From assembly GCA_964658305.1 (NCBI GenBank), contig OZ210884.1:3534001-3598000 (forward strand): DNA of 64,000 nt. Direction: 5' to 3'. The notes beneath the pieces were generated by a model. It was not told the DNA's origin. It saw only the letters and a list, made by a program, of their open reading frames with translations, and ran no database searches. The stretch comes from Leptogorgia sarmentosa. Lineage: Eukaryota. Positions 7,020-60,433 of the stretch are shown here, one piece after another (within the stretch, counting starts at the first letter, position 1; each line of letters starts with the position of its first letter). The translations under genes and the position numbers were made by a program.

Positions 7020-7915
7020 TTTCATCCAACCCATAGAAACAAGGACGTTTCACGAATGGACAGAATGGTATATATAAAGAAAAGGAATATCAAACACGGC
7101 GTTTCAACTTGTGCCAGGTACCAGATTTTTGCTTCTCTTTTCGATAGTTCACATGGCAATGTTTTATTTATCGTGTCCGTCTAGCAAATTCTGCAATATA
7201 TCCCCTAGCAGAACTGCTCATTCCCTTGTGCTTTCGAGTGAATATATAATCTGTTGCTCTCCATTCTTTGTCTATTCGATTCAAATCCAAAAATGCGTGT
7301 TATGTGTTGTAGTGTATTCCTCTGTATTGTGTTGTCCTACAATGTATTTGTTTGGTTGTTCTGTTTCTTGCATCTATCAGGCCAAAACATTGCTGAATTC
7401 AACTGACAAAATATTTTGTATACGTACGTGCATGGATTCTGAAATCTAAACGATAGAAGTGAACATTTAAGATGTTTCCATTTAAAAAATGACTTAGGCA
7501 AGCTGCTTGAAAATACGTAAGATTGACTTTGTTCAGTTTGTGAATCATGCATATGCTTTTCAGTACGGATATTAAAATCTTTCCGGTTTCATCAATTAAT
7601 TTCCAATCCATAACCTGGAAACATTTTAGTTTATTATTTTATTGAAAGAGCAGTCGAAATAAACATTAACAGTTCAGAGAGAAAAAAACGAAATTTCATT
7701 GTATTTTAAATTATCCATAAATTAAACTGAGAGGGAGGAAAACGTGGGAACTACAGTAGCTCTGTCTTGTTAAAAGCAGTGCAAAAGCGTTGGTTGACCC
7801 AACACACAGTTTTTAAACGTTGCGTAAACTAGGTGTAATACTGTATTGTCATATGAGCGCAAAATTATCTATCAGCTGTCAGATTCACAATTTCAATGTT
7901 CATGAAATATTGCGA
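7020..7915 (+). repeat. Left arm A of cassette 1 (homologous to 30360-31140; inverted homolog of 25330-26065 and 40590-41558)
   Basis: Core TCGATAGTTCACATGGCAAT...ATCGTGTCCG at 7141-7179. Inner landmarks GGAAAACGT (~7737) and CATATGAGCGCAAAATTA (~7850) are colinear with the other arms. Confidence 0.75.
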
Positions 7916-8372
7916 TACATATATATATTAGTGGACGGAAACGCAATACTATTTCAAATTATTATTTCTATTTTTGGGTTTGCCATTAGGTACTCCATTT
8001 GTAGGTATTTTTTATAACTATTGAAATATACAGTAAGTGGATGGCCGTCGCTCCGTCGCTTCACGAACTAACCTAACATGTATGTTAGTAAATTTACCAA
8101 GTTAACTTCTGATTAGGTTAGTTATCTAACAGCGCGAAGTGAAATGTAAAATTTGCTTCTACGTATATATATATATATATGTATATTGGCCGCACGCGCA
8201 TTTGTCGGTATAGAAATACATTTGCCCCAGAATTCGCTGTCTGGTTTCAACGAATTGACATGCATAAAACTACTAGCTGGTTCGGCACACCGGCATTTCG
8301 TTTGTACTGTACATTCCGAACTATCCGATTAATTTCTGTTTGTACGTAGCTATTGTTAATTCGCTCAGCAAA

Positions 8373-8455
8373 CGGGGTGTAGTTAAAATGCGGGCGCGGA
8401 CGGCGGGCGCGGGCGGCGGGCGCGGACGGCGGGCGCGGACGGCGGACGCGGACGC
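8373..8455 (+). mobile_element. Orphan terminus of a TIR/foldback-like DNA element with GC-rich subterminal repeats (GGCGGGCGCGGAC)n
   Basis: CGGGGTGTAGTTAAAATG followed by about 5 GC-rich units and then an AT-only tract. No matching opposite end was seen in the window. Confidence 0.45.
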
Positions 8456-8976
8456 TAATTTTTTAAAATTACCCTTTTTTAACTAATAATAATTTTAATA
8501 ATTAATAATTAATATTAATAATGATAATTATTAATAATAATCAATTAATAATTATTTTAATGATTATTTTAATAATTTTAATAATTATTTAACTAATAAT
8601 AATATTTTAATACATAATTGTCATTATGTATTAATTGTTATATTATATTAACTATTATTGTGCACTGTATATTATTATTATGTCGGCGAAAGTTGAGATT
8701 GAAAACAACACAGAGCAAAGCTCCCCTGTATTGCAGATCGAGGCGTTTTGTGGGTTTTTGCGGGTTTTTCCGGAAGTGTTTTGTTTTTTGCGGTGGCGGA
8801 CAATGATTGGTTGAGTAATTTTATCTGTCAGTTGTGACTTTTTTGTACTTTTTGCATGATTTTCGCCACAATTCAAAGTAATTCAAAGCCTTTTGCAAAT
8901 ATTTGAACTTTATTGCGTATTTTTGCAGAAAAATATATATACTATATACAATATTTTTGAAAAATAGAACGTTATT

Positions 8977-10285
8977 TCAACATTGTTCGCTGTTTTTCGT
9001 TGCTTCGAGTATATCTTCTATAGCGTCTATTCGTTGTAGTTTTTCTTTTTCTTTTTTTATTGTCTCTAGAGACTTTTTTCGTTCCTCAGTTATATGGTCG
9101 TACGCTATGAATTGTTTATCGTTTTCGCATACGATGTCGTAAGGGTGTTTTGTTAGTATTGGCTTCGTTTTTTTTGGGTTCTGTCGGTCTTGACCAACCA
9201 GTTTTAACATTTGACTGTACACCACCGGTTCGTCTTGTTTGCTCGCGATTTTTGTCAGGGTTTCGAGCCGTGTTGGCCGCCCGGCTGTTTTTTTGTTCTT
9301 TTCTTCGTTAGTTGTTCTTTTTCTTTTCCGTATATTCTCTTTTAATTTAGAGAGGTCTTTTCTTGCGATGTGTTGTCGGGGTTCGGGTAGTGTTGGAGCT
9401 GTTAGTACTTCGGGTGTTTGTGCTTGGACGGTCGGCGTTACTTTCGTTGGCGGTGTCACGTTGTTGGTTAGGAGGTTGAATTGTGCACCGAAATCATCTA
9501 AGCACCAGTTCTGTGGCAACGGAGATAGATAAGGGAATTGTATCTGTACCTGGGGTTGTTGTTGTTTTGGTTCAGGGCACTGTTGTGTGTCGAAAATGTT
9601 CCCTCCGTCGAACTGTAGTTCTCGACACAATCACGCTTTTTGGTATATAGGTTTTATTTAAAATAACCACAAACAAAAACTAAGATATTAAAATGTAAAA
9701 TTCTCCCAAATCACGATACACGATCAAATTAGCGCCCGGGCTATACAAATCACTCTGTCTCACACTAGGGTTCACTTCGCACTCTCTCATTCACTCTCAC
9801 AATCCAACTGAACGCTTCTCTCTTTTCGTGACTATTTCACTCGCACCCTCACTCTCTAGCTGTCACTCACTCTGTCATGCACTAATTATTGGCTATATGA
9901 AAAAATGTTATAAACTTGGATTATTTGTTCTGTCAGTCCCGACATGTGGGTTTGGTGGTATTTGGATATGTTCATTATGTTGACACGATTCGATTGTTGA
10001 TTGTTCTTTTTTGGGCGACAGTTTTCCTTCGGTAGTGTTGCTTTGTTCTTTGTACAACTTTTGCAGTAGTGGTTCTTCACGAAAGATTGCATTTCTCATT
10101 TGCCATTTTTCGAACGCTTTTGCAAGCGTTAAGTTTGTTGTTTTGTATTCTTTGAAGTTTTCGTACATTTGATAATATTCGTCATTTTTTTGTGGCGAAA
10201 TATCGATTTCTGAAAGCGTTAGGAACTCTAAGTACTCTTGTTGGTCGACTGAGAAATTCATTTTGCGCACTAAAGAATTGTTCAA
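8977..10285 (-). pseudogene. Disrupted intronless gene of unknown (TE/virus-like) origin, in two ORF pieces: 9908-10285 and 8977-9630
   Basis: Lys/Gln/Thr-rich ORFs. A decayed paralog at ~11090-11890 shares motifs from both pieces (SPLPQNWxxDDF..NLLTNN; YCKSC/YYKSC). Confidence 0.5.
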
Positions 10286-10679
10286 AATTGTGGTTTTTGT
10301 AATGGGTGTAATATTATATACTGTTACGTTGACGTTATTGATAAGTAGCTATTTTTGTCATATTGCGGGTTGTTTTAAACCTTTTAAAATATATGTCAAC
10401 ATCGGCTTATTCGCACAGATTTATGAAATTAAAAACTAGACAGCACATGCAGACCATATTTGTTTTAAATTGATTTGTAAAACTTCTGGTTTGTTTTACC
10501 CTATACAGTTAATTAGTAAAACATCGGGTTTATTTAGATCGATAAATACCATATTAAAATTTTAAATATAGCTAAAAACTTGATAGCGTCCCTGCGTTGT
10601 TGCTTTATTAATAAGATTTTATTGGGTGTTGCTGCTTATATATTGATGCATAAAAAGGGTTTGCGGTTATTATTTTCGA

Positions 10680-11084
10680 ATGGATAAACACGATGCATGT
10701 AGAAAAAAAGCAATTAAAATTTTTAAATTGTGTGATGTTGAAATGTGTATTTATGGTACGGATAATAATACAAAAAAGGTGTTCGAAGCTCTTAGTAATT
10801 ATACTACCGGTTATTCTTTGTTTTCTTTATGTGAATTATGGAGTGAAAAAAGTGAATACTATGTTGAACACATTTTTATCGATGTTGATGGAGGTCATCA
10901 ATATTTATTACTTTGCGACAGCAACCCCGCCTCGGGTAGACTTTCCCACGGCAGACGCGGAGTTTTAATATTGCCGTTGCAGTATAGCCCTAATGAAAAA
11001 AGCATTGGGAAAAAATTGACAGTAACGCGATCATGTCATGATCATGACATGATCATGTCATGTGTACTGATTGTGTGTTGTTGA
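10680..11084 (+). CDS. Hypothetical intronless ORF, 134 aa (possibly TE/viral cargo)
   Basis: ATG-initiated with protein-like composition and an AT-rich upstream region. No family recognised. Confidence 0.35.
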   Translation: MDKHDACRKKAIKIFKLCDVEMCIYGTDNNTKKVFEALSNYTTGYSLFSLCELWSEKSEYYVEHIFIDVDGGHQYLLLCDSNPASGRLSHGRRGVLILPLQYSPNEKSIGKKLTVTRSCHDHDMIMSCVLIVCC

Positions 11085-11089
11085 TAGAT

Positions 11090-11895
11090 GTTCTATAGGC
11101 TTTTGCTTAATCTTTTTTTATTGTTCCTAATGATTTTTTCGTTCTTCTGTGATGTGCTCGTACGCCAGGAATCGTTCTTCGCGGAGTGGAATTTGTGCTT
11201 TGTTGGTATTGACTTCGTTTCTTTTGTTCAGCTGGTCCTCACCAGTTGGTTTTGGTGTTTGAATTTATACGTATATTAACGACGCGTCTTGCTTGCCAGC
11301 AACTTTTATAAGGGTTTCCAATTGTATTAGCCTTCCGCTCATTCTCTTCTTCGTTTCTTCTTTTCCTTTTGCGTAAACTTTCTTTTAGTTTCGATAGGTC
11401 TTTTCTAGCAACATGTTGTTGGGGTTGAGCAGGTGTTGGACTTTCTTATGCTTGAGTGATTGGTAATATTTTCGTTAGTGTAAGATTATTGGTTAGCAGG
11501 TTGGAATGTGACCTGAAATCATCTATGTTCCAGTTTTGCGGCAATGGGGATGAATCAGGAAAACCTGCTTTTGTTTGGGGATTGCTGAGGACGATTTTGT
11601 GGTATTTGGATTTGTTGTTGCGTTTCGATTGGTTGTTGGTTTTGGAGAGCTTGGTTTGCTTCGGTCGTGTTGACGTGTTCTTCACACAGCTCTTGTAGTA
11701 GGGATTCTTCATGCATGATTTCGTTTCTCTATTTTGCAAGCGTTAGTTGACTACGACACGTAATTCTGTAGTCTTTAAAATTCTCGTACATTTGGTGTGT
11801 AGTCGTCAGTGGTTTTAGTGACGAGATGACAGTGGAAGTAATCTTGTTGTCGAATGTGAAATTTATTTTGCCTTCTTAAACAACAGTTCAAAATT
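11090..11895 (-). pseudogene. Degenerate paralog of the 8977-10285 gene
   Basis: SSPLPQNWNIDDFRSHSNLLTNNLT versus LSPLPQNWCLDDFGAQFNLLTNNVT; contains stops and frameshifts. Confidence 0.65.
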
Positions 11896-12222
11896 GCGTT
11901 TTTTTTAAAATATTATTTATGCCGTGGTATAATTATCACGTGGTTTTTGTACACAGGTTTATCAAATTATATTAAAAATAGACTGACGAACATTTGTTTT
12001 TTGTCACGTATACTGCCGTTGTTTGGCAAATCCTTCTTCCCTAAATAAAGGCAAATAAAGTACGACAAATTGATAAAATAAAACTAACTTACCTCGTGCT
12101 AGCAAATGCTATTTAAAACAATTGTTAACTTTTCTTCTATTTACGTCAGCAGGGAACTTTTTCTTCTGTTTTCTTCGTCGGTTCGTTTGTTTGAGCTTGG
12201 ATAGCGTTGTCTTTACTTCGGT

Positions 12223-13209
12223 CTACGTCCACTCAATTGGGCCGAGCGTTGTTGACATCTGACCATTCATTGCGGAATGAGCTTTGCGAAGAGGATTTTG
12301 ACCCATCATAATTTCCCGATCAGTAAGCATGTAGTTGGGATTGAGAATGTTGGCTTCGTCATTTTCCTCCAACTTGTAGTTCGGTCGCTTCATTCTCTCA
12401 CGAACCTTACGAGTCGCCGGTCGGCTGGTGCTTTGAACTTTTCTTGCTCTTTTCGCCGACTTTACATCGAATTCCTTCTCGATCTCCTCTCCTTGCAAAA
12501 TGCTGTTGGACATCGTGCTATATGCCTTGTCCTCCGAAATTTGTAAAATGTTTTTTGCTCTTGTAAGTGCTTCAGGCAATGGCACATACCATTTATATTC
12601 ATCTTTTTCTTTTGGAAATTGCCTCATAACGAACTTCATAACAGTTTCTAATTGCTCTTCAGAATAAGGTCCGAGATTACTGTTCAGTTTGAGAACAATC
12701 CTCCTTACCTCTGGATGCAAAGTTGAACCACCCTTTTTCGGAACGTCATGTTTCCAGTTTTCAATCTTCCCACTGCATACAAGACGCAACTCTTCCGTAA
12801 CAGCAAGATTTCCTTCCAGCGTTTTGGTGAACTCACTATTTTGGGACGTATTACTTCCCTGCTGTGTTGGTTGGCTGGCTTCTGAGGTGTGAGACTGATG
12901 AGTAGGCTGATGAGTATCGTTAATCGGGGACGTGGCACGCCCCGTTTTGGTTGGTACATGTATGGTTTCGGGAACGTCGTGTTTTGCTTGTTCCGTTGCG
13001 GGGGAAAGTATATTTTTTATTGGTTTGAGTATATTTTTTTTATCGCTTCCTTTAATTAACATGAGTATATTTTTTTTATCGCTTCTATTAATTAACACCT
13101 CATCTGGCAGATACCTTGTGACGATGAGCTCCGTTTTCTGTGTTTTGCGCAATAAACATGTCAGACGCGTATTGGAATAAATTTGGCAATGTGCGAGTCG
13201 TGTACGCAC
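12223..13209 (-). pseudogene. Transposon-derived ORF fragment ending in the N-terminal part of a Ulp1/SENP-like protease domain, truncated by an LTR-like fragment
   Basis: C-terminal ILNPNYMLTDREIMMGQNPLRKAHSAMNGQMSTTLGPI resembles the xLTDxxIxxAQxLLKxQxPxxxGLQxTxLG start of TE-borne Ulp1 domains. At ~12235 the sequence switches to the repeat motif TTTACTTCGGTCTACGTCCACT. Confidence 0.5.
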
Positions 13210-13614
13210 ATGCCGGTTTTATTGATTTTTCGATAAATGAATTATTAACATCACAAATGGTTAAACTAAGTAATTAATTAACAATTAACACAGAAAAGGT
13301 GGGGGTAATAACAACGCCACCGAAAACTATAATAAACTAGTACTTTCCACATGGAAAGCTATAAAGCTTTGGTATATGGGTCAATATATTTTTTCTAATA
13401 CAAACTATTGTAAAGTTTATTGATATCGATGACAAAAGTATTTTTTCATATATTATACATGTTTACAGTTCTGTTTCGGCGGTAACGCTACTTCCTCTTA
13501 ACGAGTCAAGCGAGAGACGTTCGTGTTGAAAAGACGGTCGCCGGACACGCATTGCGGTTCTTTGCATCTCGCGCTCATTCATCCTCCGTTTACAGCACCA
13601 CACGCAAATTAATA

Positions 13615-14633
13615 TTAAAAAAAATAATCTATCGTAGGTCCAATTGTAATAAGTAACAGAAACTTCATATCATTCGCGGATGGAACGAGAGTTTGGACAT
13701 AGGTGGGTTCTGCAAATAGGGTGGGTCGTGGATTGGAAGGTCGTGCAGTTGAGGACGGCCGGGCCGGGAGTTCTTGAGGATCGTGGAGTTGTGGAGGTTC
13801 GTGTAGTTGAGGGCGGTCGTGCAATTGAGAAGAAACTTAAAATTGATGACGACCCTTGAAGTTGAGGAGGGTTGTGGAGTTTGGACTGCGGAAAGCTGTG
13901 GAGTTGAGGATTATCGCCCTGTTTGGACTGTGGAGGGCTGTGGAGTTGAGGACGGTCGTGGAGTTGTGGATGATTGCGCTGCTTGGAATGTGAAGGGCTG
14001 TGGAGTTGCGGATGATTGCGCTGCTTGGAATGTGAAGGGCTGTGGAGTTGTGGATGATTGCGCTGCTTGGACTGTGAAGGGCTGTGGAGTTGTGGATGAT
14101 TGCGCTGTTTGGAATGTGGAGGGCTGTGGAGTTGAGGATGATTGTGCAGTTTAGACTGTGGAGGGCTGTGGAGTTGAGGATGATTATGCAGTTTGGACTG
14201 TGGAGGGCTGTGGAATCGCGGACGGTCGTGGGGTTTGGACTGCGGAGGGTTTTGAAACTGAAAGGTGTCTTGAAGCTAAGATGGTGGTGTGTGGTGAAAT
14301 CCTCGAGAACAATCTCGGTGGACAATCGTTTGTAAAGAATGTCCATTTGCAACTCAGCTTGCAATCAAATGAAGGATTTTCACGAACATCCAAAAATCGT
14401 AAGTTCGGAAAAGCCAATTTAATCTTCGTAAAATTTAGCGAAACAAACCTGTTTCGTCTTAGATCGATCGATACCACCCATCCCTTTCGGCGCGATATTG
14501 GTAGGTTCTGTGTGCGTTTTATCCCCAAACCATAACAATCCAAAACATTAAACCGTTGTTTCTCCAAACAATTAAAAACGGTTGTACTTCCAACAAGTAA
14601 AAAGCACAAAACGAGAAAAACCAAGCGCAGCAT
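13615..14633 (-). pseudogene. Signal peptide + short leucine-rich-repeat domain + Ser/Thr/Pro mucin-like stalk, with in-frame stops; copy 1
   Basis: [16 protein letters not shown] signal peptide; LDCYGLGI (LRRNT-like); IDLRRNRF and LRFLDVRENPSFDC (LRR/LRRCT-like); then 42-bp/14-aa repeats QPSTVQTAQSSSTP. The TAA at 14184 is CAA in the 19.4-kb copy. Confidence 0.7.
13870..14250. repeat. 42-bp tandem repeat (~8 units) encoding the S/T/P stalk on the minus strand
   Basis: Unit TGTGAAGGGCTGTGGAGTTGTGGATGATTGCGCTGCTTGGAA and variants. Confidence 0.9.
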
Positions 14634-14709
14634 TATTTTCAGCTGTTTCTTTGTCGATCGTATCGTGATGTTTGTATAACGGTATTCGTGATTGTTTTTC
14701 TTAGGTTCT

Positions 14710-14892
14710 TGTGGTAGTGGTGACTTGTGATGGTGTTGATGGTGGTGATTTATGATGGCGATGATGGTGGTGATGGTGGTGATGATGGGAATGGTGGGGA
14801 TGGTGGTGATGGTGGTGATGGTAGTGGTGACTGGTGATGGTGGTGATGGTGGCGATTGTAATAGCGTTGGGTTTAGACGGTGGTGATGGTTT
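14710..14892. repeat. (GGTGAT)n low-complexity repeat, also at ~15912-16200, 19920-20262, 21045-21295 and 22177-22370
   Basis: GGT/GAT trinucleotide mosaic that produces His-, Thr/Ile- or Pro/Ser-rich spurious ORFs. Confidence 0.9.
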
Positions 14893-15025
14893 CATTCGTC
14901 TGTATCTGAAAATCCTAATGACCCAGGTCCTCTTGTAAAGTATATTACTTCGTCTTAAACAAATCTCTTCTTCAACTGGTGAATATGTCTTCAATCGTAA
15001 CTTTATGATATTTCTGTATTTCTTT

Positions 15026-15545
15026 TGTTAAATATGTTTTTATTTGCACGAGGAGGGAATCGTTACACTTTGTCTATAGTATTTCTACTGTTCGTAAAGA
15101 TCTTCCATCTTCTTCTTCTTGGCGTTGTTTGGTCGGTTTCTTCGTTGAGTTCGTCTGTTTGAGTTTCGGTAGCCTTTTCATTTGATACGCTTTTACTTCG
15201 GTCTACGTCCACTGACTCAAGTTGGGATGGGGAGTTCCTTTTATACTGTCGGTCGAGGGGATCTCTAGACACGTGAACAGCGAGGTGGCACGATACTGAA
15301 TCCACCAATCAGCGTTCATGTGTTGTACTATGAACCGTCGTTCCAGCTCTCCAATTCTGTTTGTTTAGGATGTTGTCGCACTTCTCAAGTCAGTTTTACG
15401 CTCATTCTACCGATACTTAGATAGGTTAAGACTAACCTACTTCATTACTTATTAATAGCAAAATATTTGACGTGCAACCTCTAGGCTTAGCTTTAAGAGT
15501 TAACTTAATTTAGAAGAGAATTTAACGAACTGGGATTTTGATGTC
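15026..15545 (-). mobile_element. LTR-like repeat, partial copy
   Basis: On the minus strand: GATTGG (CCAAT box), CAGTATAAAAGG (TATA), TCAGT about 25 nt later (Inr-like), then AATAAA. Homologous to 18580-19203 and 24590-25140. Confidence 0.6.
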
Positions 15546-15835
15546 CATTTGCAACTCAGCTTGCAATCAAATGAAGGATTTTCACGAACATCCAAAAATC
15601 GTAAGTTCGGAAAAGCCAATTTAATTTTCGTAAAGTTTAGCGAAACAAACCTGTTTCGTCTTAGATCGACCGATACCATCCACCCCTTTCGGCGCGATAT
15701 TGGTAGGTTCTGTGTGCTTTTTATCCCCAAACCATAACAATCCAAAACATTAAACCGTTGTTTCTCCAAACATTTAAAAACTGTTGTTCTTCCAACAAGT
15801 AAATAGCGAGAACAAGAAAAACCAAGCGCAACATT
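15540..15835 (-). pseudogene. LRR ORF copy 2; signal region frameshifted, truncated after CKWT and fused to the LTR-like repeat
   Basis: Near-identical to 14340-14633; junction GGAC|ATCAAAATCCCAG. Confidence 0.75.
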
Positions 15836-16439
15836 TTTTTCAGTTGTTTCTTTGTCGATCGTGTCGTGATGTTTGTATAACGGCATTGGTGATTGTTTTT
15901 CGTGGGTTCTTGTGGTAGTGGTGACTTGTGATGGTGTTGATGATGGTGATGGTGGTGATGGTTGTGATGGCGGTGATGGTGGTGATGGTGGTGACTGGTG
16001 ATGGTGGTGATGGTAGTGGTGACTGGTGATGGTGGTGATGGCGGTGATGGTGGTGATTGCGGTGATGGTGGTGATGGCGGTGATGGTAGTGGTGACTGGT
16101 GATGGTGGTGATGGTAGTGGTGACTGGTGATGGTGGTGGTGTCTGGTCATGGTGGTGATGGTGGCGATTGTAATGGCGTTGGGCTTAGACGGTGGTGATG
16201 GTTTTATTTCTGCACCGTTAAATAAGGTGGGTTCAGGTGGAGAAATTGAAAACAATTAAAAAAACTTTATAATATTTATGTATTTCTTTATCACCTTCTG
16301 AATAGCATTAATTCCAAGGTGATGCTATTTTATTCAGGCTTTTAGCCTTATGAATAATGCATGCTTAGAAGTGTTGTGCTGAAGTATTTTTTACTAACGG
16401 ACAGTGATGACCTAATTTTTTATTTGCAGAACGCGGTTA

Positions 16440-17441
<1,002 letters not shown>

Positions 17442-18259
17442 CATATTCCATTACATTATGAGTGAGCGTTTTCATCTCAGCCATTGCTAAGCTGAATAGT
17501 ACTTCGCTTGCGCAAGTTCGTGGGCGCTAAAGCATTCGCTTAATCATGCAAGGTTAACTAAAGTCTTACTTTCTAAAATAAAGTCTTTATGTCATTGAAT
17601 ATATGTATCGCGTATAGTATCTGAGTACATCATTATATAAGGTGTCACGCAACAATGTACAATTCAACTCGAACAGCCAGATCGTCGAGGTCGCAAAGGG
17701 AATGCTCGTTACTTAGTTCGCGTGAAATACGCTAGAGCACCCAATTTCCAAACATTCTTTTATTTCTATTTCTTCTAAATTGAAATATTTAACGTTCACA
17801 CAGACACTTTACAAACACGTACACAGTCAAACATATGGACCAAGACTTACTAACTAGGTAACATTATTTACATTTGATGCACGTGCAGTTGTCAAACACG
17901 GATTGTTTATAATTGTTTATTGTTGACCACATATGGTCATTTTTAATCATCCCTGATATCAATATGAATCGAACCCCGTATGTTAAACGTACTCGTATAA
18001 CATGTGTATATATTTCATATAACAAACAGAATGAAGATAGCTACAATAATTAATCATACCGAAAACGTAGCAGTCTAAGTAAAAAAGCATGCATAAGTAT
18101 AGCTGACGGAATGAAATTGAATAGAGATCAGGTTCTTCCTTTTTGCATTCTTGTTGAAGAATAAGAACAAAGTCGATATTTTTTTAATTTGATCTCAAAT
18201 CTGACATTTATCATTTACTCATTTGATTTATATATCAAATGGAAATAATTGCAAAGACC

Positions 18260-18579
18260 GAATGGTAGCTAATACTTTAAATTGGTAAAGCCCATGATAG
18301 GTTGTGAAGGACGTGTATTCTTTGGGGAATGCCCCATTTCGACTTGCCAGTAGCCAGAAATCAAATCTAATGTAGTGAAAAATTGGGTTTGTCCCAGTAA
18401 TTCAAGGGATTCCTGAATATCCGGAATTGGGTTGGAGTCTTTTTTAGCAACGGCGTTCAATTCGCGATAATCAACGCAAAACCTATTACACCCATCCTTT
18501 TTCTTAACCAAGACAACGGGACTAGCCGAAGCACTCACTGATGGTTCGACGACATCATCGTGAAGCATTGATGTAATAT
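18260..18579 (-). mobile_element. Ty3/gypsy reverse transcriptase N-terminal fragment
   Basis: ITSMLHDDVVEPSVSASASPVVLVKKKDGCNRFCVDYRELNAVAKKDSNPIPDIQESLELLGQTQFFTTLDLISGYWQV shows canonical gypsy RT motifs; it frameshifts afterwards and ends before YxDD. Confidence 0.95.
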
Positions 18580-21472: not shown

Positions 21473-22054
<582 letters not shown>

Positions 22055-30359: not shown

Positions 30360-31140
30360 CTTCCGTCCAAACCAGAAAATTCGGCAGCATTCCAGGAAAC
30401 GATGCAAATCGCAACACGAAGTTGTGCGAGGTACCAGATTCATTTTGCTTCTCTTTTGATAGTTCACACGGCAATGTTCTGAACATCGTGTCCGTTTATC
30501 CAATTTTCCTCTTGTCGCTTTCTCTTGCATCTCGCTGTATTGTTTTGTGTTGTGTTGTAAAGTTAGTGTTGTTTTATTTCACATTAGTCATTTTATCATA
30601 CTATGACATTGCTGGTTTCAACTTGCATAATGCATTCGCGCATTTTTTAATTGAAATTTCGGTTTACTTTTACCTGTTTCTTTATTTCATTATTTTGTAA
30701 TGTTTTAAAATGCCCATATTCAAAAAAGATATAAAAAATACCGCGCGGCTAGAGCCTCGTGGAATCTCTTTATACTTTGGTCTATCGATATATGAAAGTA
30801 TTTTCTGCAACTCCAGTTGAATTTGAAATTTTTCCGATATTCGAAAGTTTTCAGTTTATTTATTTACCCTGAAAAACAGCAGTCAAAATAAGCTTTTATA
30901 GAATGATGTGATATTATTCATAATGTATTTGTAATGAGCTAGTTTTGAGGCGCAGGAAAACTTATCTTAAATTTAATTAGCTATAGCTGGCTGATATGCG
31001 GACCTCACAGTATTACAGTATTTTACAGACGTAAAAGAGTGCGTAACTGATCATGTATTATCGTATGTGAGAACAAAGTTAAGTAATAATTTTTATAATA
31101 ATCACATTGAGGATGTAGTAAATATTTAAAAGACAGCAAG
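30360..31140 (+). repeat. Left arm A' of cassette 2
   Basis: TTGTGCGAGGTACCAGATT..TTTTGCTTCTCTTTTGATAGTTCACACGGCAATG..ATCGTGTCCG matches 7109-7190 closely; inner landmarks are colinear. Confidence 0.78.
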
Positions 31141-31672
31141 GTAATAAGCAACTCGAGTTGGGAATGCCATGCATGACCGAAACAACGTGTTTTTTTTCAC
31201 TTGTCAATCAAATCATAAAATGACAGCTCTCGAAATATATAGCTCCTTTCTTCGGGCGCGCTATGAAAATAACAGTTTTACCACTTTATATTTTATACCA
31301 ATTCAGTACTCGCTTTGACGCATGTTTTTGATTGATGGTAAATTTACTATTGGCGTGGCAGAAAACCCGGATAAGCGGATAGTAGGGAATGGATACGAGA
31401 TTTATAAAAAAATCTATTGTGATACTAATTACCAAATCCCATTATCGTTGATTTAAAAATCACGGTCTCTTCTCGCGTCTCCTTCACGCTTTTTTGGAAA
31501 ACTAATATGCAGGTTAAAAACATACAGTAGCTAACACTATTTTTAAAATGGTTTATCACCTAGAAAGTACAATTACAAGAACAACTTCCAAAAATAGTTC
31601 TCCTGCAATGTGCTTATTCAATTTGGTGGTCTTCTCCCCCAACATAATTGGAAAAGCTGCCAAAATACACCG

Positions 31673-31765
31673 AATAACCTAGGCTATACGTTTTCCAATG
31701 TCATTAATAAATATATACATCTAAATAACCTATAGGCTATACGTTTTCCAATGTCATTAATAAAT
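31673..31765. repeat. ~50-bp tandem repeat (2 units); 3 more units at 33568-33697
   Basis: Unit AATAACCTAGGCTATACGTTTTCCAATGTCATTAATAAATATATACATCTA. Confidence 0.85.
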
Positions 31766-32059
31766 AAGGGAATCGGGGTTGGCGCATGTTAAAAGATTGC
31801 AAAAATTGCTATATATGTAGATTGTTTTAAAACGTTATCATACCAAATTGTTTCTTGTTGCCATACAGGCCAACGCGCAATGCCATTGTGGTTGAATACT
31901 TGAGAGTTTTAAGAGTGTCTGCTAATAGATGCTTGCTGTAGCAAAAGGGCCGAATGTGACATGCGCACGTGTGTATAAATTGCGTGTTACGGGGCGTCTT
32001 GGGCATGTTTGTTGTCGTGTGGTTATAATTGGGGTCTCAGGGGGTGAAGGTTGTGTAGC

Positions 32060-32940
32060 TAGGATAATTGCCTGTTGGTTTAATCGTAGTTCATTCATGA
32101 TGTTCACTGCTGCTTTGTTACGAACATTAAAATGACCAACATCATCATCCAAAATTGAGCACCTCGGCTGCAACCAAAAATTGTTTTCGGCAACCGGTTC
32201 CAAATCATCCCGTTCAATGACTCATTTTGGTTCTGGGTTTTCCCATCCAAGCACTTTGCCAAAATATCATCATTACTAAGCCTGTCATAAATCGGCCTAA
32301 TTAACTTAATAATATCATCAGGACGACCAGGTCCTGGTTCATATAGATTCATATTATTGGCCACATCCTGCTTGCATAGTGAAAGAAGTGGCAAGTGCTG
32401 AGGATTTCATGGCAGATAAATCTCCAGAATTACTTCTTATGGCAATTCCATAATAGTTCTGAGGTTTGTCTATCAAAGAGTCAGTGAGTTTCCCCTTCCC
32501 AATCCAATCCCCTTCCCTCCAATCTTTTTTCCGCTTCCTCAATGCTGTGTCTGAACTCCATGAACTCCTTCGTATAGCTGTTCACTACCTCATTGTAGGT
32601 CTTGCTGTCACCATCGCCAAAGTACTCGGTGTATTGCAGCTTGCGACATTCCTCGCTTCTTCCAAAGATTCTCTTGATCCCAGCAGTTTCCATTGATGGT
32701 GCAGAACCAACGTAGTTCACTTTATACTTAATTGCCAGTGTGCTTTTCCAAAGGGTCTGCTTTCTTTGCATCATCAGACTCCCTTTAATTGCTTTGCACC
32801 CATGACAAACTTTTGTTAGGACCTCGATGTCCAAGCATTTGCCAGTTTCAATAGATAAGGTTGTGGCACAGCCATTTAGCGAGGAGTGACCACGTCTTTG
32901 CCATGTTCCATCGCACGAGACACCACACTTTACAATCTGG
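32060..32940 (-). mobile_element. Degenerate Kolobok-type (Pfam 'Mutator-like') DDE transposase fragment
   Basis: SCDGTWQRRGHSSLNG, TGKCLDIEVLTKVC, GSAPSME, YFGDGDSK, GKGKLTD..YYGIAIRSN and CLDGKTQNQNESLNGMIW, spread over several frames. Confidence 0.9.
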
Positions 32941-33289
32941 CTCCAATGACGCATTGACAACAGCAATATCCTTGCTGAAGCGCTTTATCCTGTCAAAATA
33001 TTTGTGTTAATAATAATAATAATAATCTTCAACAACATGCAATTCAATAGTTGCATCTTGCATGAATGTCAATAGCACAATAAAACTGATTGATATGATC
33101 GTATAGAATATGGATGAGACGTATTGTTTTGTTCACGGTGAAAAACAAATGACACATGTTTAAACAAGGAACAGTTTATTAACGTACATATATACAAAAG
33201 TATTCTAAAGTCATTGATGAAACTGCTTTCCAAATAGTAATTTGCTGGATGGCTTGCTTGCTTGTTTGCTTGCTTTCGACGGGTCTCAG

Positions 33290-33430
33290 GAGATTGACAT
33301 CGTAGTACGGTTCTTCGGGTAACCATTCAAAGTATTTGCACGAATTTTCCTTATCCAGAGGACAGCAGAAAAACTTTCGATCTTTGTTTAAACCGTCTTT
33401 TTTCACTTTACACACTTTGCAAGTAAGTCC
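33290..33430 (-). pseudogene. GRF-type zinc finger fragment
   Basis: CKVKKDGLNKDRKFFCCPLDKENSCKYFEWL fits the zf-GRF pattern (N.GR.F..C......C.FF.W). Confidence 0.8.
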
Positions 33431-33713
33431 ATGACGCCATTCGGGTTTCTTTTCGAATTCCACGTCACCCCACTGCATGCCAATGAGTTTGAGAACGATA
33501 AGAAGAGATGACAACGCATTGTTGTGAAAGATTATATATTGGGCATTCGGCGTTGACCATTATATCTAATAACCTAGGCTATACGTTTTGCAATGTCATT
33601 GATAAATATATACATCTATAAATAACCTAGGCTATACGTTTCCAATGTCATTAATAAATATATACATCTAAATAACCTAGGCTATACGTTTTCCAAATAT
33701 TAATTTTGTATTC

Positions 33714-34060
33714 GGTTCAATGACTCATTTTGGTTCTGGGTTTTCCCATCCAAGCACTTTGTCAAAAGATCATCATTACTAAGTCTGTAATAAATGGGCC
33801 TAATTAACTTAATAATATCATCAGGACGACCAGGTCCTGGTTCATATAGATTCGTATTATTTGCCACATCTTGCTTGTATCGACACCAGCTCTCAGGAGC
33901 ATCTGGACAATAGGTGTGCGAGTTCCGTCTCTTGGAAGAAACACATCCCCTTGTTATCTTTTTTCATCTTCCTCGGTGCTCTGCCGACTCGTTTTTGAAT
34001 ATGACCAACACATTCTTTTTTCTCCACATGAACTCCTACGTATTAGCTGTTCTGTACCTC
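33714..34060 (-). mobile_element. Additional Kolobok-type transposase fragments
   Basis: 33714-33878 duplicates 32210-32374. Also encodes HTYCPDAPESWCRY and KKECVGHIQKRVG, motifs missing from the 32-kb copy. The ECVGH segment recurs at ~36600-36722. Confidence 0.85.
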
Positions 34061-35120
34061 GCCAAAATATGTATGTTACATACCTTCAAAGACAATTCTT
34101 CCTCTTCAAGAACTCAATAACAAATGTGATTAGCCTTTTAGACTTTAGTGTGAAGCGTCGGTAAATAGCATATAGCAATAGCAATAGACGTTAATTTCTA
34201 TTTTCTGAATACTCAAAATATTAAATTTCGCTGAAGACGCTTCGTGGAGCATGATTTCCAATTCCCTCAAAAGAGTTTATACTAAATTTTCTGGACCTTG
34301 CAGTACCAAAAACAAACAGTACCTGATGAACAAAATATTGAAATTGAAGAACATGTTACTGAAGTACTATTTACTATAAAGAACAAATAATGTCAAATAA
34401 AAAATAATTGAAGGTTTGAATAATAATCATAAAGGAAGTGCTTTACGCCAAATCGTTTCTTTATAAGTAGTAGTTTTTAATTACAGATGCCCTCGGGGTC
34501 ATTTATACACTAAGTAAATACCATTAGTCAACCTTGAATGAAGGAACATGATATTTGTTAAAGCATGAGTCATGATGGTGCAGTTTAAAAGATGCTTGTA
34601 CTCCGCACTGGATACACTGAAATTGAAGTCGTTGCCACTAAAAAAGAGCAAGGATTCCAAGAAAATTTTTCATCAAATAATCTACATGTTTTGTTTACTG
34701 GTTTTTTTTCTTATAACGCACATTGGGGGCTGTGGAAACTAAACTTCCCAGCGTTACAAAATCGTTGTTTCACATTTCGTTCAAATTTAAAAAAAAAAAG
34801 TTGGTCCTACATGTGTAGCCGAACGCTATTTAGTCCATATATACTACAAATTATGTGATGTTTGTAAACCTTGGTCACATTCCTTATGACTTGTCCAAAG
34901 AGATGATCACCAGGATTAGTTAGGCAGCCAATGGGGACCCCCATTATCGGTCTCCAAGTACTTTGAGTGGGTGCCCGATGTGCCTTATCTAGTTGTTAGT
35001 TTTGTGAAACCCGTTTCAAGTATATCATAAACAATTTTCCAATTAGTTGGAACATATGAACATTTTATTTGAACAGTTTTAATTTAAACACTTTTATAAG
35101 TATTATTTTAAAAATTCTTA

Positions 35121-36349
35121 TTAAAAATCATTAAAGTCTAAATGGTCTAAAAAATAAAAATTGTTCCAGTCCAATGAGGCCATGAGTTCATCCACGTCAG
35201 GTACCGGGGATGGGACTTCTTCAAGGGGGTTTACTGGGGGTTCTTGGAGGACTTCATCGAGCGCTGCTTCTTGGGCTTGATTCAGATCGGCGTCCTCTTC
35301 GACATATTGATCCTCGAACCTTTGTAATAAACGAGGGTCTTCTAAATGGTCTAAAAAATAGAAACCGTTCCAGTCCAAGGAGGCCATGAGTTTACCCACA
35401 TCGGGTACCGGGGATGGGACTTCTTCACGGGGGTTTATTGAGGGTTCTTGGAGGACTTCATCGAGCGCTGCTTCTTGGGCTTGATTCAGATCGGCGTCCT
35501 CTTCGACATATTGATCCTCGAACCTTTGTAATAAATGAGGGTCTTCTAAATGGTCTAAAAAATACAAATTGTTCCAGTCCAAGGAGTCCAAGGAGGCCAT
35601 GAGTTCACCCACGTCGGGTACCGGGGATGGGACTTCTTCACGGGGGTTTTTTGAGGGTTCTTGGAGGACTTCATCGAGCGCTGCTTCTTGGGCTTGATTC
35701 AGATCGGCGTCTTCTTCGACATATTGATCCTCGAACCTTTGTAATAAATGAGGGTCTTCTAAATGGTCTAAAAAATACAAATTGTTCCAGTCCAAGGAGG
35801 CCATGAGTTCACCCACGTCGGGTACCGGGGATGGGACTTCTTCACGGGGGTTTACTGGGGGTTCTTGGAGGACTTCATCGAGCGCTGCTTCTTGGGCTTG
35901 ATTCAGACGGCGTCCTCTTCGACATATTGATCCTCGAACCTTTGTAATAAATGAGGGTCTTCTAAATGGTCTAAAAAATAGAAACCGTTCCAGTCCAAGG
36001 AGGCCATGAGTTCACCCACGTCGGGTACCGGGGATGGGACTTCTTCACGGGGGTTTATTGAGGGTTCTTGGAGGACTTCATCGAGCGCTGCTTCTTGGGC
36101 TTGATTCAGATCGGCGTCCTCTTCGACATATTGATCCTCGAACCTTTGTAATAAATGAGGGTCTTCTAAATGGTCTAAAAAATACAAATTGTTCCAGTCC
36201 AAGGAGGCCATGAGTTCACCCACGTCGGGTACCGGGGATGGGACTTCTTCACGGGGGTTTACTGGGGGTTCTTGGAGGACTTCATCGAGCGCTGCTTCTT
36301 GAGCTTGATCCAGATCGTCGTCCTCTTCGACATATTGGTCATTGAACAT
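35121..36349 (-). pseudogene. Acidic protein built of six 204-bp (68-aa) tandem repeats; single 1-bp frameshift at ~35908
   Basis: Repeat spacings of 204, 213, 204, 203 and 204 nt. ATG at 36349, stop at 35121. Unit QYVEEDADLNQAQEAALDEVLQEP..REEVPSPVPDVGELMASLDWN..YFLDHLEDPHLLQRFED. Confidence 0.8.
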
Positions 36350-36949
36350 TTTATTTGAACATTTTATTTGAACATTTTATTTTAAACATTTTATTTTAAC
36401 ATATAAAAAGAAACTGTTAGTTATAAAGATTGCTATCAAAATTGGTTAAAATAGTCTTCAGGTGAAAAATTAAAATCATTGAGAAAATTGAAATCGTCCC
36501 CTCCAAGGACGCCATAAGATCCGCTAAGCACAAGCGACATTTACGAATCATTTAATCGAATTAATATAATTTTTCAAAATCTATGCTACCTAATTTGTAA
36601 CCCTAACCCTTTCCTTCCAATCCCCTTGTTATCTTTTTTTTCAGCTTCCTCAGTGCTGTGCCGACTCGCTTTTGAACATGACCAACACATTCTTTTTTCT
36701 CCACATGAACTCCTTCGTAGCTATTAAGAAAATATTCTTAAAATAAGATAAATTTTTCTTAAATAGATTTTTTTATTAAGGAATATTTCTTGTTATTCTT
36801 TCCAAGAAAAACAAGTTTTTTTTTCTTAAAATACACTACCGTAGTAAGAAAATGATTTTCAAGAAATTCTTCTTGAAACAAGAAATTTTAATAAATTCTA
36901 AGACGCATGTATTACAATAATGTTCATATATTCTACGGCTTCTGTGTTA

Positions 36950-37657
36950 AAGTTTTTGTACGACGGAAGCTGCGAAATACTGCAGGACGTTCATTCCGAG
37001 TTCATAGTATTTTGGATAATCAAAATCTAGCAAATAAAACGTTGCCATGAATGCCACAACAGTTTCTGGCAACAGGCTTATCTCTAGCTTCAACAAAATG
37101 CGTTTTCCTACTATCACATAACAGGAATTTCTGTCCAACATCACCGTCGGAACATTCCCGGCTTGCTTGCCACACAACATGTCAGGATCCTCATGGTCCT
37201 TTACGAAACAAATAAATTGAATGAATACACGCAGTTTGAAATTATATCATCAAACATACTTCATACTTGTGCATTACTGTACCTTAACTTTATGTATAAT
37301 TTCCTGATTGGTCTGTTCCTTTGCGTTGTGTTTCCCGGAGAATAAAGTTGGCAGGAACTTAAGAACATGGAGGATCTTGGCATTTGCAAACAGAGATTGA
37401 AGTATAATAAATCATGCACTTACAATTACTAACACATAACTGTTATACTCCCTAAAATGAAAGCACAGTGGTTTCGATTCATGAAGGAACTTACTGAGTT
37501 GTGGGCTTTTTGGAGGATTTATTCCTTTTGAGTTAATGGGCTGGCATAGTATTATTAGTATATAAGAAATTCAATTTCTTCAGTGAGCCTGGAAACACAT
37601 CCTTTTAGAAAATCTTCTTCTTGTTCAATCATTAAGACTCACCTAGCCTCAATAACC
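36950..37657 (-). pseudogene. Spliced fragment of a DNA-transposon accessory ORF (EnSpm/CACTA-associated type), decayed
   Basis: Exon ...KILHVLKFLPTLFSGK...IHKVK|GT intron AG|DHEDPDML..., ending AFMATFYLLDFDYPKYY...LQ, which resembles the F..YY.F.L.YP motif of such ORFs. Confidence 0.5.
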
Positions 37658-38184
37658 TGTTAAATAGAAGAGATATACATGTGTGTGTATAATTATTAAG
37701 ACAGCATCATCCAGGTCTTTAATGTACAACTAACTAACTGTAATATGAAATTATGGTCAAAATTGAAATGGTCTTGAAGGACACGTTGCCCAAGGAAACC
37801 TTCTACGACCTTGACCTTACTAACAACTCAATGGAATATAAAGGAATAAATAATACAATTACAAAATATGGTAGTAACATTGCAACATATGAGAGCATGA
37901 TTATTAAAAATAATGTGTATGTTCCACATTGACACTGTCATAAATTACCATTGAGACATAGGACATTGATTAAAAGTATAATTCATTAAAAGTATAATTC
38001 ATTAAAAGTATAATTCATTAACAGTATAATTCATTAACATAAAATTTAGTAGTGGATGGCATTTTTAAAGGGAAAACTCAACCTTTTTTCAGTGCAGAAA
38101 TCGTTAATATTAATTGATTATTATACAAATAATGAATGTTTATGAGTGCAATGGTAAGAATATTTTCATGGAACATTCCATCTT

Positions 38185-38465
38185 TCACCGAATGCGTGAC
38201 TCCGTAACTTTCTTCAAATTTCTGCCATTACACGCCCGTTTTCGTTTTGTTTTGGTGCCTTGACCGGCACATGCGAAAAAGTCGCACTTCTCATTTTTGT
38301 CCGTCTCCTGGCATCGCAAAAACGGCCGGCCCGGGTTTTCTGTAGAATGCGAAACCCAAAAGCTGCAAACTTCATCGCAATCACATAATGGGAAGTTGTT
38401 CGGTTTCAACTTGCTGTGTACCTTCGATTGAAAGACCTCAACCAGCTCGGTATACTTCTCCTCGG
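38185..38465 (-). pseudogene. GRF-type zinc finger fragment
   Basis: PLCDCDEVC...SHSTENPGRPFLRCQETDKNEKCDFF. Confidence 0.85.
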
Positions 38466-39224
38466 CCACAAATAACGTACAAGTTATACATTTTCATTTC
38501 ATGTCGGCACGGCGTGTATGATTTTTTTTTTCGAACTCGTATTGTATTGTATTGTATTGCATTGTGTATTGTGAATACAATATAGTTACACATTACATAA
38601 TATAAAAGTTAATTAAGATACTAATTATATATACATACTATACTAATACTAATACTAATTATATATAACAAGAATACCTGTTTTCCATAAGTGCCGTGCT
38701 AATATATATTAATATAAAAATCTAAAATTATTAACTAATTCTGCCCTACCATGGAAACCAGAGTTGAACTCTTGCAAACATCACACTCAAAAGGTATTTC
38801 TCGTGTGTGGTTTTTTTTCATCCATTGTGTCTACCTACAATGCAGTAGACAGTGGGTCACACTGAAAAAGTAGATTTAATATAAGTAAAAATATATATAG
38901 CATTTGCTTCTCGTAGAAGATGTACGGTTAGGCAACTTATGCATTAGCGACTTATGGATAAGACGCCACCTTAATAAGACGCGATCTAGTTTATAATTTT
39001 GCTCCATATTTACACAACCAGCATTTTGCAATTGACTTTACGAAAATCGAAATAACTTTTGAAGACAGGGTTGGTTTCTTCATTGCCCTAAAATAGTCCT
39101 CTTGTGAGGTGGAAGATTAAAGTACCTTACCACACATTCAAAAGCCCCCAGCTTCTTACATTACTCCTTCTAAACTCAATGTACCTTTTTCTCAAATGTC
39201 TTAATGTTTTTCTTCTACTCTTCA

Positions 39225-39397
39225 CTGTGTGTGGAGGAATCACCGTCACCGAGCATGTTCGTGTATTTAAGGCCCCGTGAAATGTAGGATCTTTCAAATA
39301 TCCGCAAGGCGCCAGCTGCTTCCATGCTGTTCGCGCTTCCTGTATGGTTAATTTTGCACTGGTGGTTAGCTTTCCACTCTAATGTTTCTAACTCCAC
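39225..39397 (-). mobile_element. Kolobok-type transposase fragment from a second family
   Basis: CKINHTGSANSMEAAGALRIFERS...LKYTNMLGDGDSST. Confidence 0.85.
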
Positions 39398-40589
39398 AAG
39401 TTTCGGTATTGGTAAATAATAGTATCATTTTTTTCAAAATTCATAACATGGACAATAAGTAATATTGTGAATGCTTGCGTAGCTGAAACGCTGAATACCG
39501 GCAAATTTTGTGGCGCGAATTTGATCGCGATGGTCTCAACGGTAATCGTTCGAATGTACTTTAAATATTTGTGAAATATAATTTATATTATTATTTGTAC
39601 GCGGAAAATAAACCTAAAATTAAAGCTTTAAAGTTTTACGCTGAGCGTCTGATGTTGAGATGTAATTTTGTCATGCTAATAATATATATCAGTTTTCAAT
39701 ACCTTTTGAATCTTCATTACCATCCGCTGGCAAGTTTTTCTTTTTTTTCACCTAACTCGCTATCTTTCCGGCGAACATTTGGAAATTATGGTTGAAAGTA
39801 TCTTCCATAGATGAAGGCATGCCTTCCACCACAACACGTTCAAATTTAATGAGGACTTGGTAATCGGCTGCTATCTGTATTTTTTCAATTGCTTGTACAC
39901 CACCATGTACCACAATCAGGGCGTATGCGGCCTTTGCGTTGTGAAGGTTTAAGGTGATGTTCGCATGCGCTATCTTCATTTTCCTAAGTAACAAAAAATA
40001 TAAGTTGTATAGTACATACCATTGTGGGCTAGTCATATTTAGACTTCAATTTCATCATGACTGCAAAATGATGTGACACGTATATAATTATATGATAAAA
40101 AATGATTTAAAAGTATATGATGTGACGCGTATATAAGTGTGAAAAAGTACAGGAAGAATTTCACAAAATCTGGCTGGTTGGTTTTATTTGCCTTTTGTGA
40201 CAGCAGGATGGGGCAACTTCTGTCAGCTCATCCGAAAATAAACAATAGTATATGCATATTTAGTGAGGCACCACAAAATACATACTGTAACAGCTCATTA
40301 TATTACACCAATTACTTCCATCTTCGAAGATTTTCTCCAAAATATATTTCGCTGAATTTGAAAGCAATTCAGATAACCAATTCGGGAAAAGAGTTGAAAT
40401 TTTGCCTGGATCATAATGTCTTTCACAATACGGTGGCGAAAAATGTGTCAATTTTTGCTTTTCTTTCGATAATCGTGTCGGTATTTGAACCCATTTTTTC
40501 CCGATCGAAGGTTTCGCATGCATGTGTATGCCGTAAATCCTAAAAATATAATTTCCTTGTTTTGGAGTAAAGGATACATATAGACGCAC

Positions 40590-41558
40590 CATATTGAATT
40601 GTTTTTGTTCATCCAATCGATGCCATTAAATTGTAGTAACCGTACTAGTTTAGGTTTGTAAAATATTTGAATACTGTCTGATCCGCGTATGTAACTCGAG
40701 TTTTTCTCAATATGCGTTTTCCTCAGTCCTTTTGAAATAGGCGATTTACAAAAATATTATGAATAATTTTCTAACAATTATTTTGCATAAATTTGCTTCG
40801 TTTTCACATTAAATTTCATCGTAATTATACTAGTTTCAATTTCAATGGATTTCTGTATGCAAGTATGAAGACTGGTGAGTTGCAGGAAATACTTCTAAAA
40901 AAATTCTGCTGTCTTTCACGTGAGCGAAATTTTGTTTTTTTTCTGCGCAAAACTGTTGAATAAGGCAATGTGATAGTGCGGAACTAGATAGTACACAAGT
41001 TATGAATTTTTATTTTTCTACCTATGTGTTTCTCTTGTTAAGTACATGTGCGCTCATAAGTTACTGATGATCATCTTGGCTCGTGACAATAGAATGAATA
41101 AATCTGAAAACTTAAGTGAAAAATTATATTTCAAAATTTGTGTGCCCAAAAAACTAAATTTGTGCATTTTTGTATTAACTCTTGTCGTATACAAATATCC
41201 ACATTGTAAATACTTTTCCATTTGTTTGTGTGACATTGAATACAAAAACTTTTCCGGCACTTTTTGTCAACCTTTCTAGAGCTTGGATCATTCGAAATGA
41301 GAATTAAAAAAGATGTCTAAGAATTTATGAGCGCATCTGTAGCTAATACTCGTTACTGCCAAATGCTTGTGTGACATGGCATGGTTCAAATGTAACAGCA
41401 AAATCTTCGAACATTTGCATATTTGTGTGTATTATTGTCTATACGTGTATTATATGTTTGGTTTCTTCTTTTGCCAAATGCAATCTCTTTTCCCGGACAC
41501 GATTCATTTCTTTCCTCTGAAATTGCCATTTTGTGACTATCGAATTTGAGTTGCGATC
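40590..41558 (-). repeat. Right arm B' of cassette 2 (interrupted by a MITE)
   Basis: TTTCCCGGACACGATTCAT...ATTGCCATTTTGTGACTATCGAATT(T)GAGTTGC is shared with 25993-26060. GTTTTCCTCAGT (~40717) matches the inner GAGGAAAAC landmark. Confidence 0.7.
41045..41339. mobile_element. Tc1/mariner-type MITE
   Basis: TA|CATGTGCGCTCATAA ... TTATGAGCGCATCTG|TA. Confidence 0.65.

Positions 41559-60397: not shown

Positions 60398-60433
<36 letters not shown>

Follow-up and report, generated by a model that had tools for sequence, protein, structure and literature searches.

The window analysed here is a stretch of 64,000 nucleotides (nt) from Leptogorgia sarmentosa (assembly GCA_964658305.1, contig OZ210884.1, positions 3,534,001 to 3,598,000); all coordinates below are those of the window. 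It carries two cassettes, in each of which a mosaic of coding fragments, transposon pieces among them, lies between a left arm and an inverted right arm. The arms form a frame of two distinct types, the frame recurs in other assemblies, and the identified cargo is confined to it and biased to one strand. What marks DNA in an animal cell as a source of PIWI-interacting RNAs (piRNAs), and by what route such loci first arise, are unsettled questions. Known piRNA clusters turn over fast and seldom share sequence signals. A short motif of two types at both ends of candidate clusters makes the question of source marking testable, including the prediction of clusters from DNA alone.

Left and right arms and their relatives in other assemblies

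Four arms delimit the two cassettes:

7094..7912, plus strand: left arm A, with a type-specific outer block, the core (7143-7179, 9-nt spacer), a TG-rich tract and inner conserved blocks; 7097-7784 is matched by a profile of L001 and L003 only (E 1.8e-28)
25255..26113, minus strand: right arm B, core 25999-26048 with a 20-nt spacer; profile of L002, L004 and L005, E 4.1e-25
30407..31138, plus strand: left arm A', core 30458-30494 with a 9-nt spacer; external-only profile, E 4.8e-44
40591..41597, minus strand: right arm B', core 41494-41541 with an 18-nt spacer; external-only profile, E 1.1e-25 and 7.2e-10

Every arm carries a two-box core, GATAGT-N(3-8)-AYGGCAAT-N(8-24)-ATCGTGTCCG, which is matched four times in the window, in the order A(+)..B(-), A'(+)..B'(-), and not once in 100 dinucleotide shuffles of it. 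The motif scan places the cores within 2 nt of the positions given in a first-pass annotation, in which a model had read the bare sequence. A profile search of the window returned no further full core. At 6741-6787(+), about 350 nt upstream of arm A, a profile gave a weak partial match to the left-arm outer block (E 0.0036).

Local alignment scores sort the arms by type. The left arms resemble each other (A-A' 161), as do the right arms (B-B' 141), against a shuffle baseline with a mean of 41-48 and a maximum of 52-68. Pairs across types score 112 (A'-B'), 65 (A'-B), 50 (A-B) and 40 (A-B'). The first-pass annotation was right to set A-A' and B-B' above A-B. Its description of four homologous arms of about 0.8 kb has to be narrowed: similarity within the left and within the right arms stands, but A has nothing but the core in common with B and B'. 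Across arm types the link consists of the core and one inverted inner block, in which 40591-40894 of B' is 71% alike to 30796-31089 of A' (278 columns). A 14-mer at 31069-31082 is, as described before, the reverse complement of 25424-25437. Homology of arm B is clear over 25933-26112 and weak further inward. The TG-rich tracts adjoining the cores lie on the same (+) strand at both ends, and conservation fades outward from the arms without a sharp end.

An exact motif scan of a metagenome collection yielded six contigs (L001-L006) from three assemblies. L002 and L006 are 99.6% identical, which leaves five distinct external loci, none of them near-identical to the window. L001 and L003 are of the left type; L002, L004 and L005 are of the right type. 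The spacer between the boxes measures 9 nt in four of four left arms and 18-20 nt in five of five right arms, window and external loci taken together, and the external loci have spacers of either 9 nt (two loci) or 18-19 nt (three loci). One outer block is common to the left arms and a different outer block to the right arms. Because the search pattern permitted spacers of 8-24 nt and contained no flanking blocks, this sorting into types was not selected for. Profiles built from external arms only matched, within the window, A and A' alone (left profile) and B and B' alone (right profile), with the E values listed above.

With the core masked, left arms are still related to each other over about 700 nt (z 4-39), and B' is related both to the right arms of the external loci (z 4-11) and, with z 8-14, to A'; B is weakly related to any arm (z up to 4). 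Mean identity in the profiles is 82-88% in core columns and 45-60% along the arms. Islands of identity within otherwise diverged sequence point to constraint more than to neutral decay, with the reservation that the external loci were retrieved by their core. The sequences of L002 and L005 agree at about 89% to either side of the core, over a span that takes in 700 nt of outer flank, and represent orthologues or a segmental copy. The far flanks of the remaining arms are unrelated.

The same motif was absent from viral contigs (0 matches). It occurred once in prokaryote genomes, which is about the chance expectation by our estimate, with no arm homology around the match; this single match served as chance control. 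A Pfam search of 96 open reading frames (ORFs) from L001-L005 gave no real match and missed even a reverse-transcriptase (RT) piece identified by homology. Just inside the right arm of L002 (58-321, minus) lies a charged ORF of 88 amino acids (aa), which faces against the frame as the window cargo does.

Two further ideas about the cores were rejected. Whichever strand is folded, all nine cores have z scores from -1.5 to +1.5, giving no stable fold, and a hairpin in the core was discarded on these scores. A coding role for the ATG in the cores was discarded too, as frames differ among the right arms (spacers 18, 19 and 20). Rfam produced 13 weak matches in the window, none of them in an arm. 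By eye, the left outer block may be read as a splice acceptor, and an RFX-like box and an initiator-like word may be present as well.

Cargo between the arms

The following pieces were recognised in the interiors:

7950..25250, no strand: interior 1, where coding fragments form a mosaic and local duplication is extensive
8980..11908, minus: two diverged copies (66-67%) of one family; strand from the ORFs at 8980-9630 and 9911-10348, not from homology
10680..11081, plus: truncated piece of an unnamed gene with an intact 187-aa relative, P0068
12226..13218, minus: piece of a Ulp1-protease/PHD gene, a 331-aa frame identified by homology
14187..21240, minus: ORF in four locally duplicated copies, with a signal-peptide-like start and one motif like a leucine-rich repeat (LRR), labels from sequence
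16460..17441, minus: 84-bp tandem array of broken C2H2 zinc fingers (Pfam zf-C2H2, E 1e-14)
18272..18616, minus: RT fragment (Pfam RVT_1, E 2.4e-5, below the curated cut-off)
21493..22054, minus: second copy of the C2H2 array (Pfam zf-C2H2, E 3e-12)
31150..40550, no strand: interior 2, a mosaic unrelated to interior 1
32484..32984, minus: Mutator-like transposase fragment, family 1 (Pfam Mutator, E 1.4e-23)
33182..33559, minus: GRF zinc-finger ORF (Pfam, E 5.4e-9)
33896..34042, minus: short Mutator-like transposase piece (short-frame Pfam scan)
35124..36376, minus: 204-bp tandem repeat with long acidic ORFs (repeat and ORF analysis)
36606..36737, minus: short Mutator-like transposase piece, 92% alike to the piece at 33.9 kb
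38188..38493, minus: second, different GRF zinc-finger ORF (Pfam, E 4.1e-5, below the curated cut-off)
39218..39424, minus: Mutator-like transposase fragment, family 2 (Pfam Mutator, E 1e-12)

Transposon and zinc-finger domains are confined to the cassettes. A Pfam scan of all 364 stop-free frames of at least 55 aa in the window marked seven such pieces between the arms (26.7 kb) and none in the 37 kb of flank. All seven are on the minus strand (two Mutator-like, two GRF, one RT and two copies of the C2H2 array). Short frames of 36-54 aa were scanned inside the cassettes alone, 78 in cassette 2 and 102 in cassette 1, where the set leaves out low-complexity and zinc-finger repeat stretches; the corresponding set for L004 comprises 26 frames of 30-54 aa. 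The two short Mutator-like pieces were left out of the count inside and outside the cassettes.

Strand is uneven as well when pieces are oriented by homology: 10 of the 11 in the window lie on minus. The right arm of L004 contains the RT piece of a long interspersed nuclear element (LINE), which likewise points against its frame; the best named relatives of this piece (about 61%) come from the octocoral Paramuricea clavata. Counted by family, the cargo is opposite to the A-to-B direction in eight of nine cases (one-sided p 0.02, two-sided p 0.04). Repeat matches within the cassettes are all direct (64/64 and 10/10 overlapping high-scoring segment pairs, which are not independent of each other); outside, 17 are direct and 6 inverted.

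The two interiors have no sequence in common by blastn or tblastx at E<1e-3, in agreement with the first-pass annotation. It had taken both for short pieces of many unrelated transposon or virus-like genes, of which the transposon part stands. No viral relatives appeared for the cargo examined: a PHROG search with 22 cargo ORFs gave nothing of substance, the acidic repeat ORF yielding low-complexity matches alone, and two cargo ORFs had no relatives among viral contigs. Protein Atlas returned nothing usable for two ORFs. Nor are the pieces of cassette 1 all unrelated, much of it (13.7-22.7 kb) being local duplication of a few pieces that are 89-97% alike. Cargo is 80-97% identical to its nearest relatives and the arms are 45-60% alike; judged by these identities, the arms are old and the cargo is young.

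Interior 1 is T- and G-rich on the plus strand (AT skew -0.16, GC skew +0.14). For one half of the family at 8980..11908 the protein-level score is 228 on minus versus 167 on plus, and for the other half there is no difference. The Ulp1/PHD piece is cut just before the catalytic domain, into which intact relatives run on; at this point a short word common to both sides joins it to a different repeat family. The junction is found in other copies too, since P0048 (95%) and P0049 (86%) terminate with an identical fusion, and some relatives of the cargo may be alleles of this locus. Another relative of this piece, P0061, has an apparent tail which we take to be a Gypsy integrase, and the RT fragment at 18272..18616 is presumably of Gypsy type by its motifs. 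The copies of the LRR-like ORF sit between His/Pro-rich microsatellites; no relatives of this ORF were found among proteins of 59-189 aa. At the start of the cargo of cassette 1 (8390-8660) a GC-rich short tandem run is followed by an AT-only imperfect palindrome.

Sequencing runs bear on cassette 2. Among the runs listed, 11 of 16 carry part of 30300-40299; they come from three studies under two species labels and include no RNA run. Interior 2 is partly covered by contigs of four runs (three studies, one of them under the second species label); among these, contigs of runs X1 (30790-31709) and X9 (30844-31612) bridge arm A' into it. Since such contigs recur across runs, the cargo is at least partly common to individuals, though differing between the cassettes. 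None of the 15 joints listed out of 78 (four runs) links two cores or skips the cassette. Run X4 departs from the DNA-type runs in its uneven contig depth: the right arms both have contigs (25509-26389, 40795-41558), and coverage is sparse at A' and in parts of the gap. As contig depth neither ranks places nor gives strand, this run was not used as evidence. One X1 contig omits the 1354-nt tandem-repeat ORF at 35065-36420, representing another allele or another repeat copy. A unit of about 53 bp, present in two copies at 31673-31766 and three at 33561-33696, brackets the first Mutator-like and GRF pieces in the manner of a linker.

Candidate one-strand piRNA source loci and competing explanations

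From the sequence, we put at roughly 55% the probability that the cassettes belong to a small paralogous family of candidate piRNA source loci, one-strand and flamenco-like, in which the start and end modules are conserved. A fixed frame with variable transposon cargo, as proposed in the first-pass annotation, is supported by the window and by the five further loci in other assemblies. The annotation had also suggested a small-RNA locus with inward-facing promoters. The small-RNA part of this suggestion fits best; the promoter part fares worse, eight polarised families of nine favouring one-strand transcription. Because the cargo is strand-polarised, that transcription would run from A to B.

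Under this reading the arms are non-coding, and arm A would act as promoter and transcript 5' end. A long transcript running from A to B would be antisense to almost all of the identified cargo and would be cut into piRNAs. Selection would retain pieces that land in antisense, which would afterwards be trimmed and copied in place, and arm B would provide a 3' end or a chromatin boundary. One DNA-binding complex could read the two-box motif at both ends, spacers of 9 versus 18-20 nt, about one helical turn apart, holding the boxes on the same face of the helix. New frames might arise by segmental duplication, each then gathering its own cargo.

Papers are cited by PubMed Central number, and statements on them refer to the portions of their text that were covered. 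Fly one-strand clusters combine a discrete promoter with antisense transposons; flamenco and the flam-like clusters of Drosophila are like the present loci in their enrichment of transposon fragments antisense to one direction and in the conserved elements that their 5' ends carry (PMC10643416). Their bias is specific to Gypsy, whereas Mutator-like, RT, Ulp1 and zinc-finger pieces are mixed here, and their promoter elements are hard to detect beyond close species, whereas the end motif described here is common to paralogues and stands at both ends (PMC10643416). The present loci, unlike the clusters of that paper, measure 9-17 kb. In Nematostella vectensis 402 of 457 piRNA clusters are one-stranded (PMC5731801), and clusters of the slug Arion vulgaris contain dense transposon fragments read in antisense (PMC11615739); for neither are conserved boundary arms or a shared end motif described in the covered text, supplements being outside its scope. 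Mouse piRNA clusters are alike in having inverted homology at their two ends, formed there by inverted copies, more than 90% identical, of short interspersed nuclear elements, LINEs and long terminal repeat elements, which according to the authors are as frequent in random regions (PMC2065894). The ends described here differ from those of mouse: they are diverged, fall into a left and a right type, show conservation from locus to locus and are too dissimilar to fold back over their full length.

Literature searches, covering mostly titles and starts of abstracts and no supplements, brought up no conserved, asymmetric left/right frame on candidate piRNA clusters. The cnidarian small-RNA papers PMC5731801, PMC6211395 and PMC13343488 hold no such frame in the parts covered (supplements outside scope), and a search on octocoral piRNA, transposable elements and small RNA found no paper. 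One-way transposon piles, by contrast, are already known.

Several observations weigh against a one-strand piRNA source. For the external loci, there is some circularity in the conservation of the core, as these loci were found by it. No external contig spans both arms, and L004 alone reaches identifiable cargo. The blind count of long ORFs is weak (inside 16 minus and 6 plus, p 0.05; outside 9 and 7; Fisher p 0.32), in part owing to the open shadow frames that accompany real genes. Few families enter the count, two of the matches lie below Pfam cut-offs, and C2H2 and GRF pieces are not necessarily transposon genes. The piece at 10680..11081 is the sole homology-confirmed piece of the window in sense orientation, and L004 has a degenerate RT-like stretch in sense orientation at 1200-1900(+), without a Pfam match, which we take by its motifs to be Penelope-like. 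The Ulp1 truncation is also present in P0049, an 86%-identical protein, which implies that some fusions are older than this copy or were spread in the form of composite repeats. Finally, a promoter model alone does not explain why the same motif stands inverted at B.

The alternative that survives best, unlikely but with a real chance, makes both arms inward promoters of overlapping sense and antisense RNA, as in a two-strand piRNA or small interfering RNA locus. It would account for the two-box motif facing inward at both ends, and both cores hold a YY1-like GCCATNT word (consensus from PMC7481187). A symmetric locus, however, gives no reason for eight of nine families to face one way, strand bias is lost in two-strand clusters (PMC10643416), and the tracts beside the cores are TG-rich on the same rather than on opposite strands.

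Doubtful, too, is a reading of the units as giant non-autonomous elements of Pack or Helitron type, whose asymmetric ends would be old and whose fragments would have been captured in one orientation. Helitron capture is co-oriented, like the cargo here, and the inverted common core together with the inverted 71% block of A' and B' would suit such ends. A Pack-type element, one of two options in the first-pass annotation, has nevertheless lost ground. In neither cassette do the outer flanks have a word in common that exceeds 8 nt, a length equal to the chance median of 200 random pairs, although old target-site duplications could have decayed. The arms have no sharp ends and are much older than the cargo, and the outer flank shared by L002 and L005 (700 nt, about 89%) makes independent transposon insertions unlikely. 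Instead of the near-identical terminal inverted repeats of a Pack-type Mutator-like element (Pack-MULE), A-B scores 50 against a shuffle mean of 43, and A' and B' share the core and one 71% block. Pack-MULEs and cargo-carrying Helitrons likewise enclose gene fragments between inverted ends (PMC6431247). The present frames are much larger (cassettes of 19 and 11 kb versus 1-7 kb for Pack-MULEs), their identified cargo is of transposon type and not host exons, and they combine ends older than the cargo with no target-site duplication above chance (compare PMC6431247).

It is improbable that the arms serve some other function, as conserved elements of insulator or enhancer type, and that the interiors are neutral transposon graveyards whose strand bias stems from local duplication and chance. 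Much of cassette 1 is indeed local duplication, and the blind ORF strand test against the flanks is not significant. But unrelated families in the two cassettes and in L004 have a common polarity relative to the arms, and the 37 kb of flank are without transposon-domain matches.

Two further explanations start from the unequal spacers. We give little credence to the arms as an inherited "memory cassette" scaffold, in which a host protein would recognise such signals, possibly domesticated RAG/Transib-like ends, and would both define the transcript and direct the capture of transposon fragments in antisense; this would be an animal analogue of an array of clustered regularly interspaced short palindromic repeats (CRISPR), with active, oriented acquisition. 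Very unlikely is the second, that the cores are recombination signals like recombination signal sequences (RSS) or ProtoRAG ends, at which a host or transposon recombinase inserts, excises or shuffles cargo. Read from inside outward, the cores give CACGAT(A/G/T), 11 nt (left) or 20-22 nt (right) and GCC(A/G)T(G/T)T, with spacer classes about one helical turn apart; ProtoRAG ends have CACTATG, 27 or 31 bp and GCCATCTTG (PMC7481187, PMC8289069). A CAC-starting 7-mer, two spacer classes and a GCCAT-type 9-mer are thus common to the cores, to the terminal inverted repeats of ProtoRAG/RAGL and to 12/23 RSS (PMC7481187, PMC8289069, PMC7204232). The resemblance to the GCCATCTTG box is present, but the outward neighbours of the CAC are invariant bases (CGGA) and long conserved arms, not a variable target, and the polarity would place the transposon body outside the cassettes. 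There is no 5-bp duplication: the five bases adjoining CAC are CCGGA at B, and those adjoining GTG are TCCGT at A'. No RAG1L or RAG2L Pfam match occurs in the 4.4-kb gap between B and A' or in the cassettes, and no core-to-core joint was seen among the 15 of 78 listed (four runs). On polarity, invariant outer bases, 5-bp duplication and RAG-like genes the cores fail the definition of the RAGL/ProtoRAG family, as given in the covered part of PMC7204232.

Least credible is programmed DNA elimination, with arms marking segments removed from somatic cells: conserved paired motifs do surround transposon-rich DNA, but pieces of interior 2 are present in contigs of four runs (three studies), contigs of X1 and X9 bridge A' into the interior, and no joint among the 15 of 78 listed skips the cassette. 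Should the arms not bound piRNA sources, they would still be an undescribed conserved paired element.

Host genes in the surroundings

Downstream of cassette 2, Pfam identifies Mucin2_WxxW exons at 47.6 and 55.7 kb. A tandemly duplicated small host gene, made up of a signal-peptide-like exon and a Mucin2_WxxW exon, occupies 45190-63966 on the plus strand, and its blocks at 47.0-50.8 and 55.2-58.8 kb are 91% alike. At 49432-49562, 57460-57591 and 62817-63518 lie long hairpin repeats, similar to miniature inverted-repeat transposable elements, with sub-threshold matches to microRNA families.

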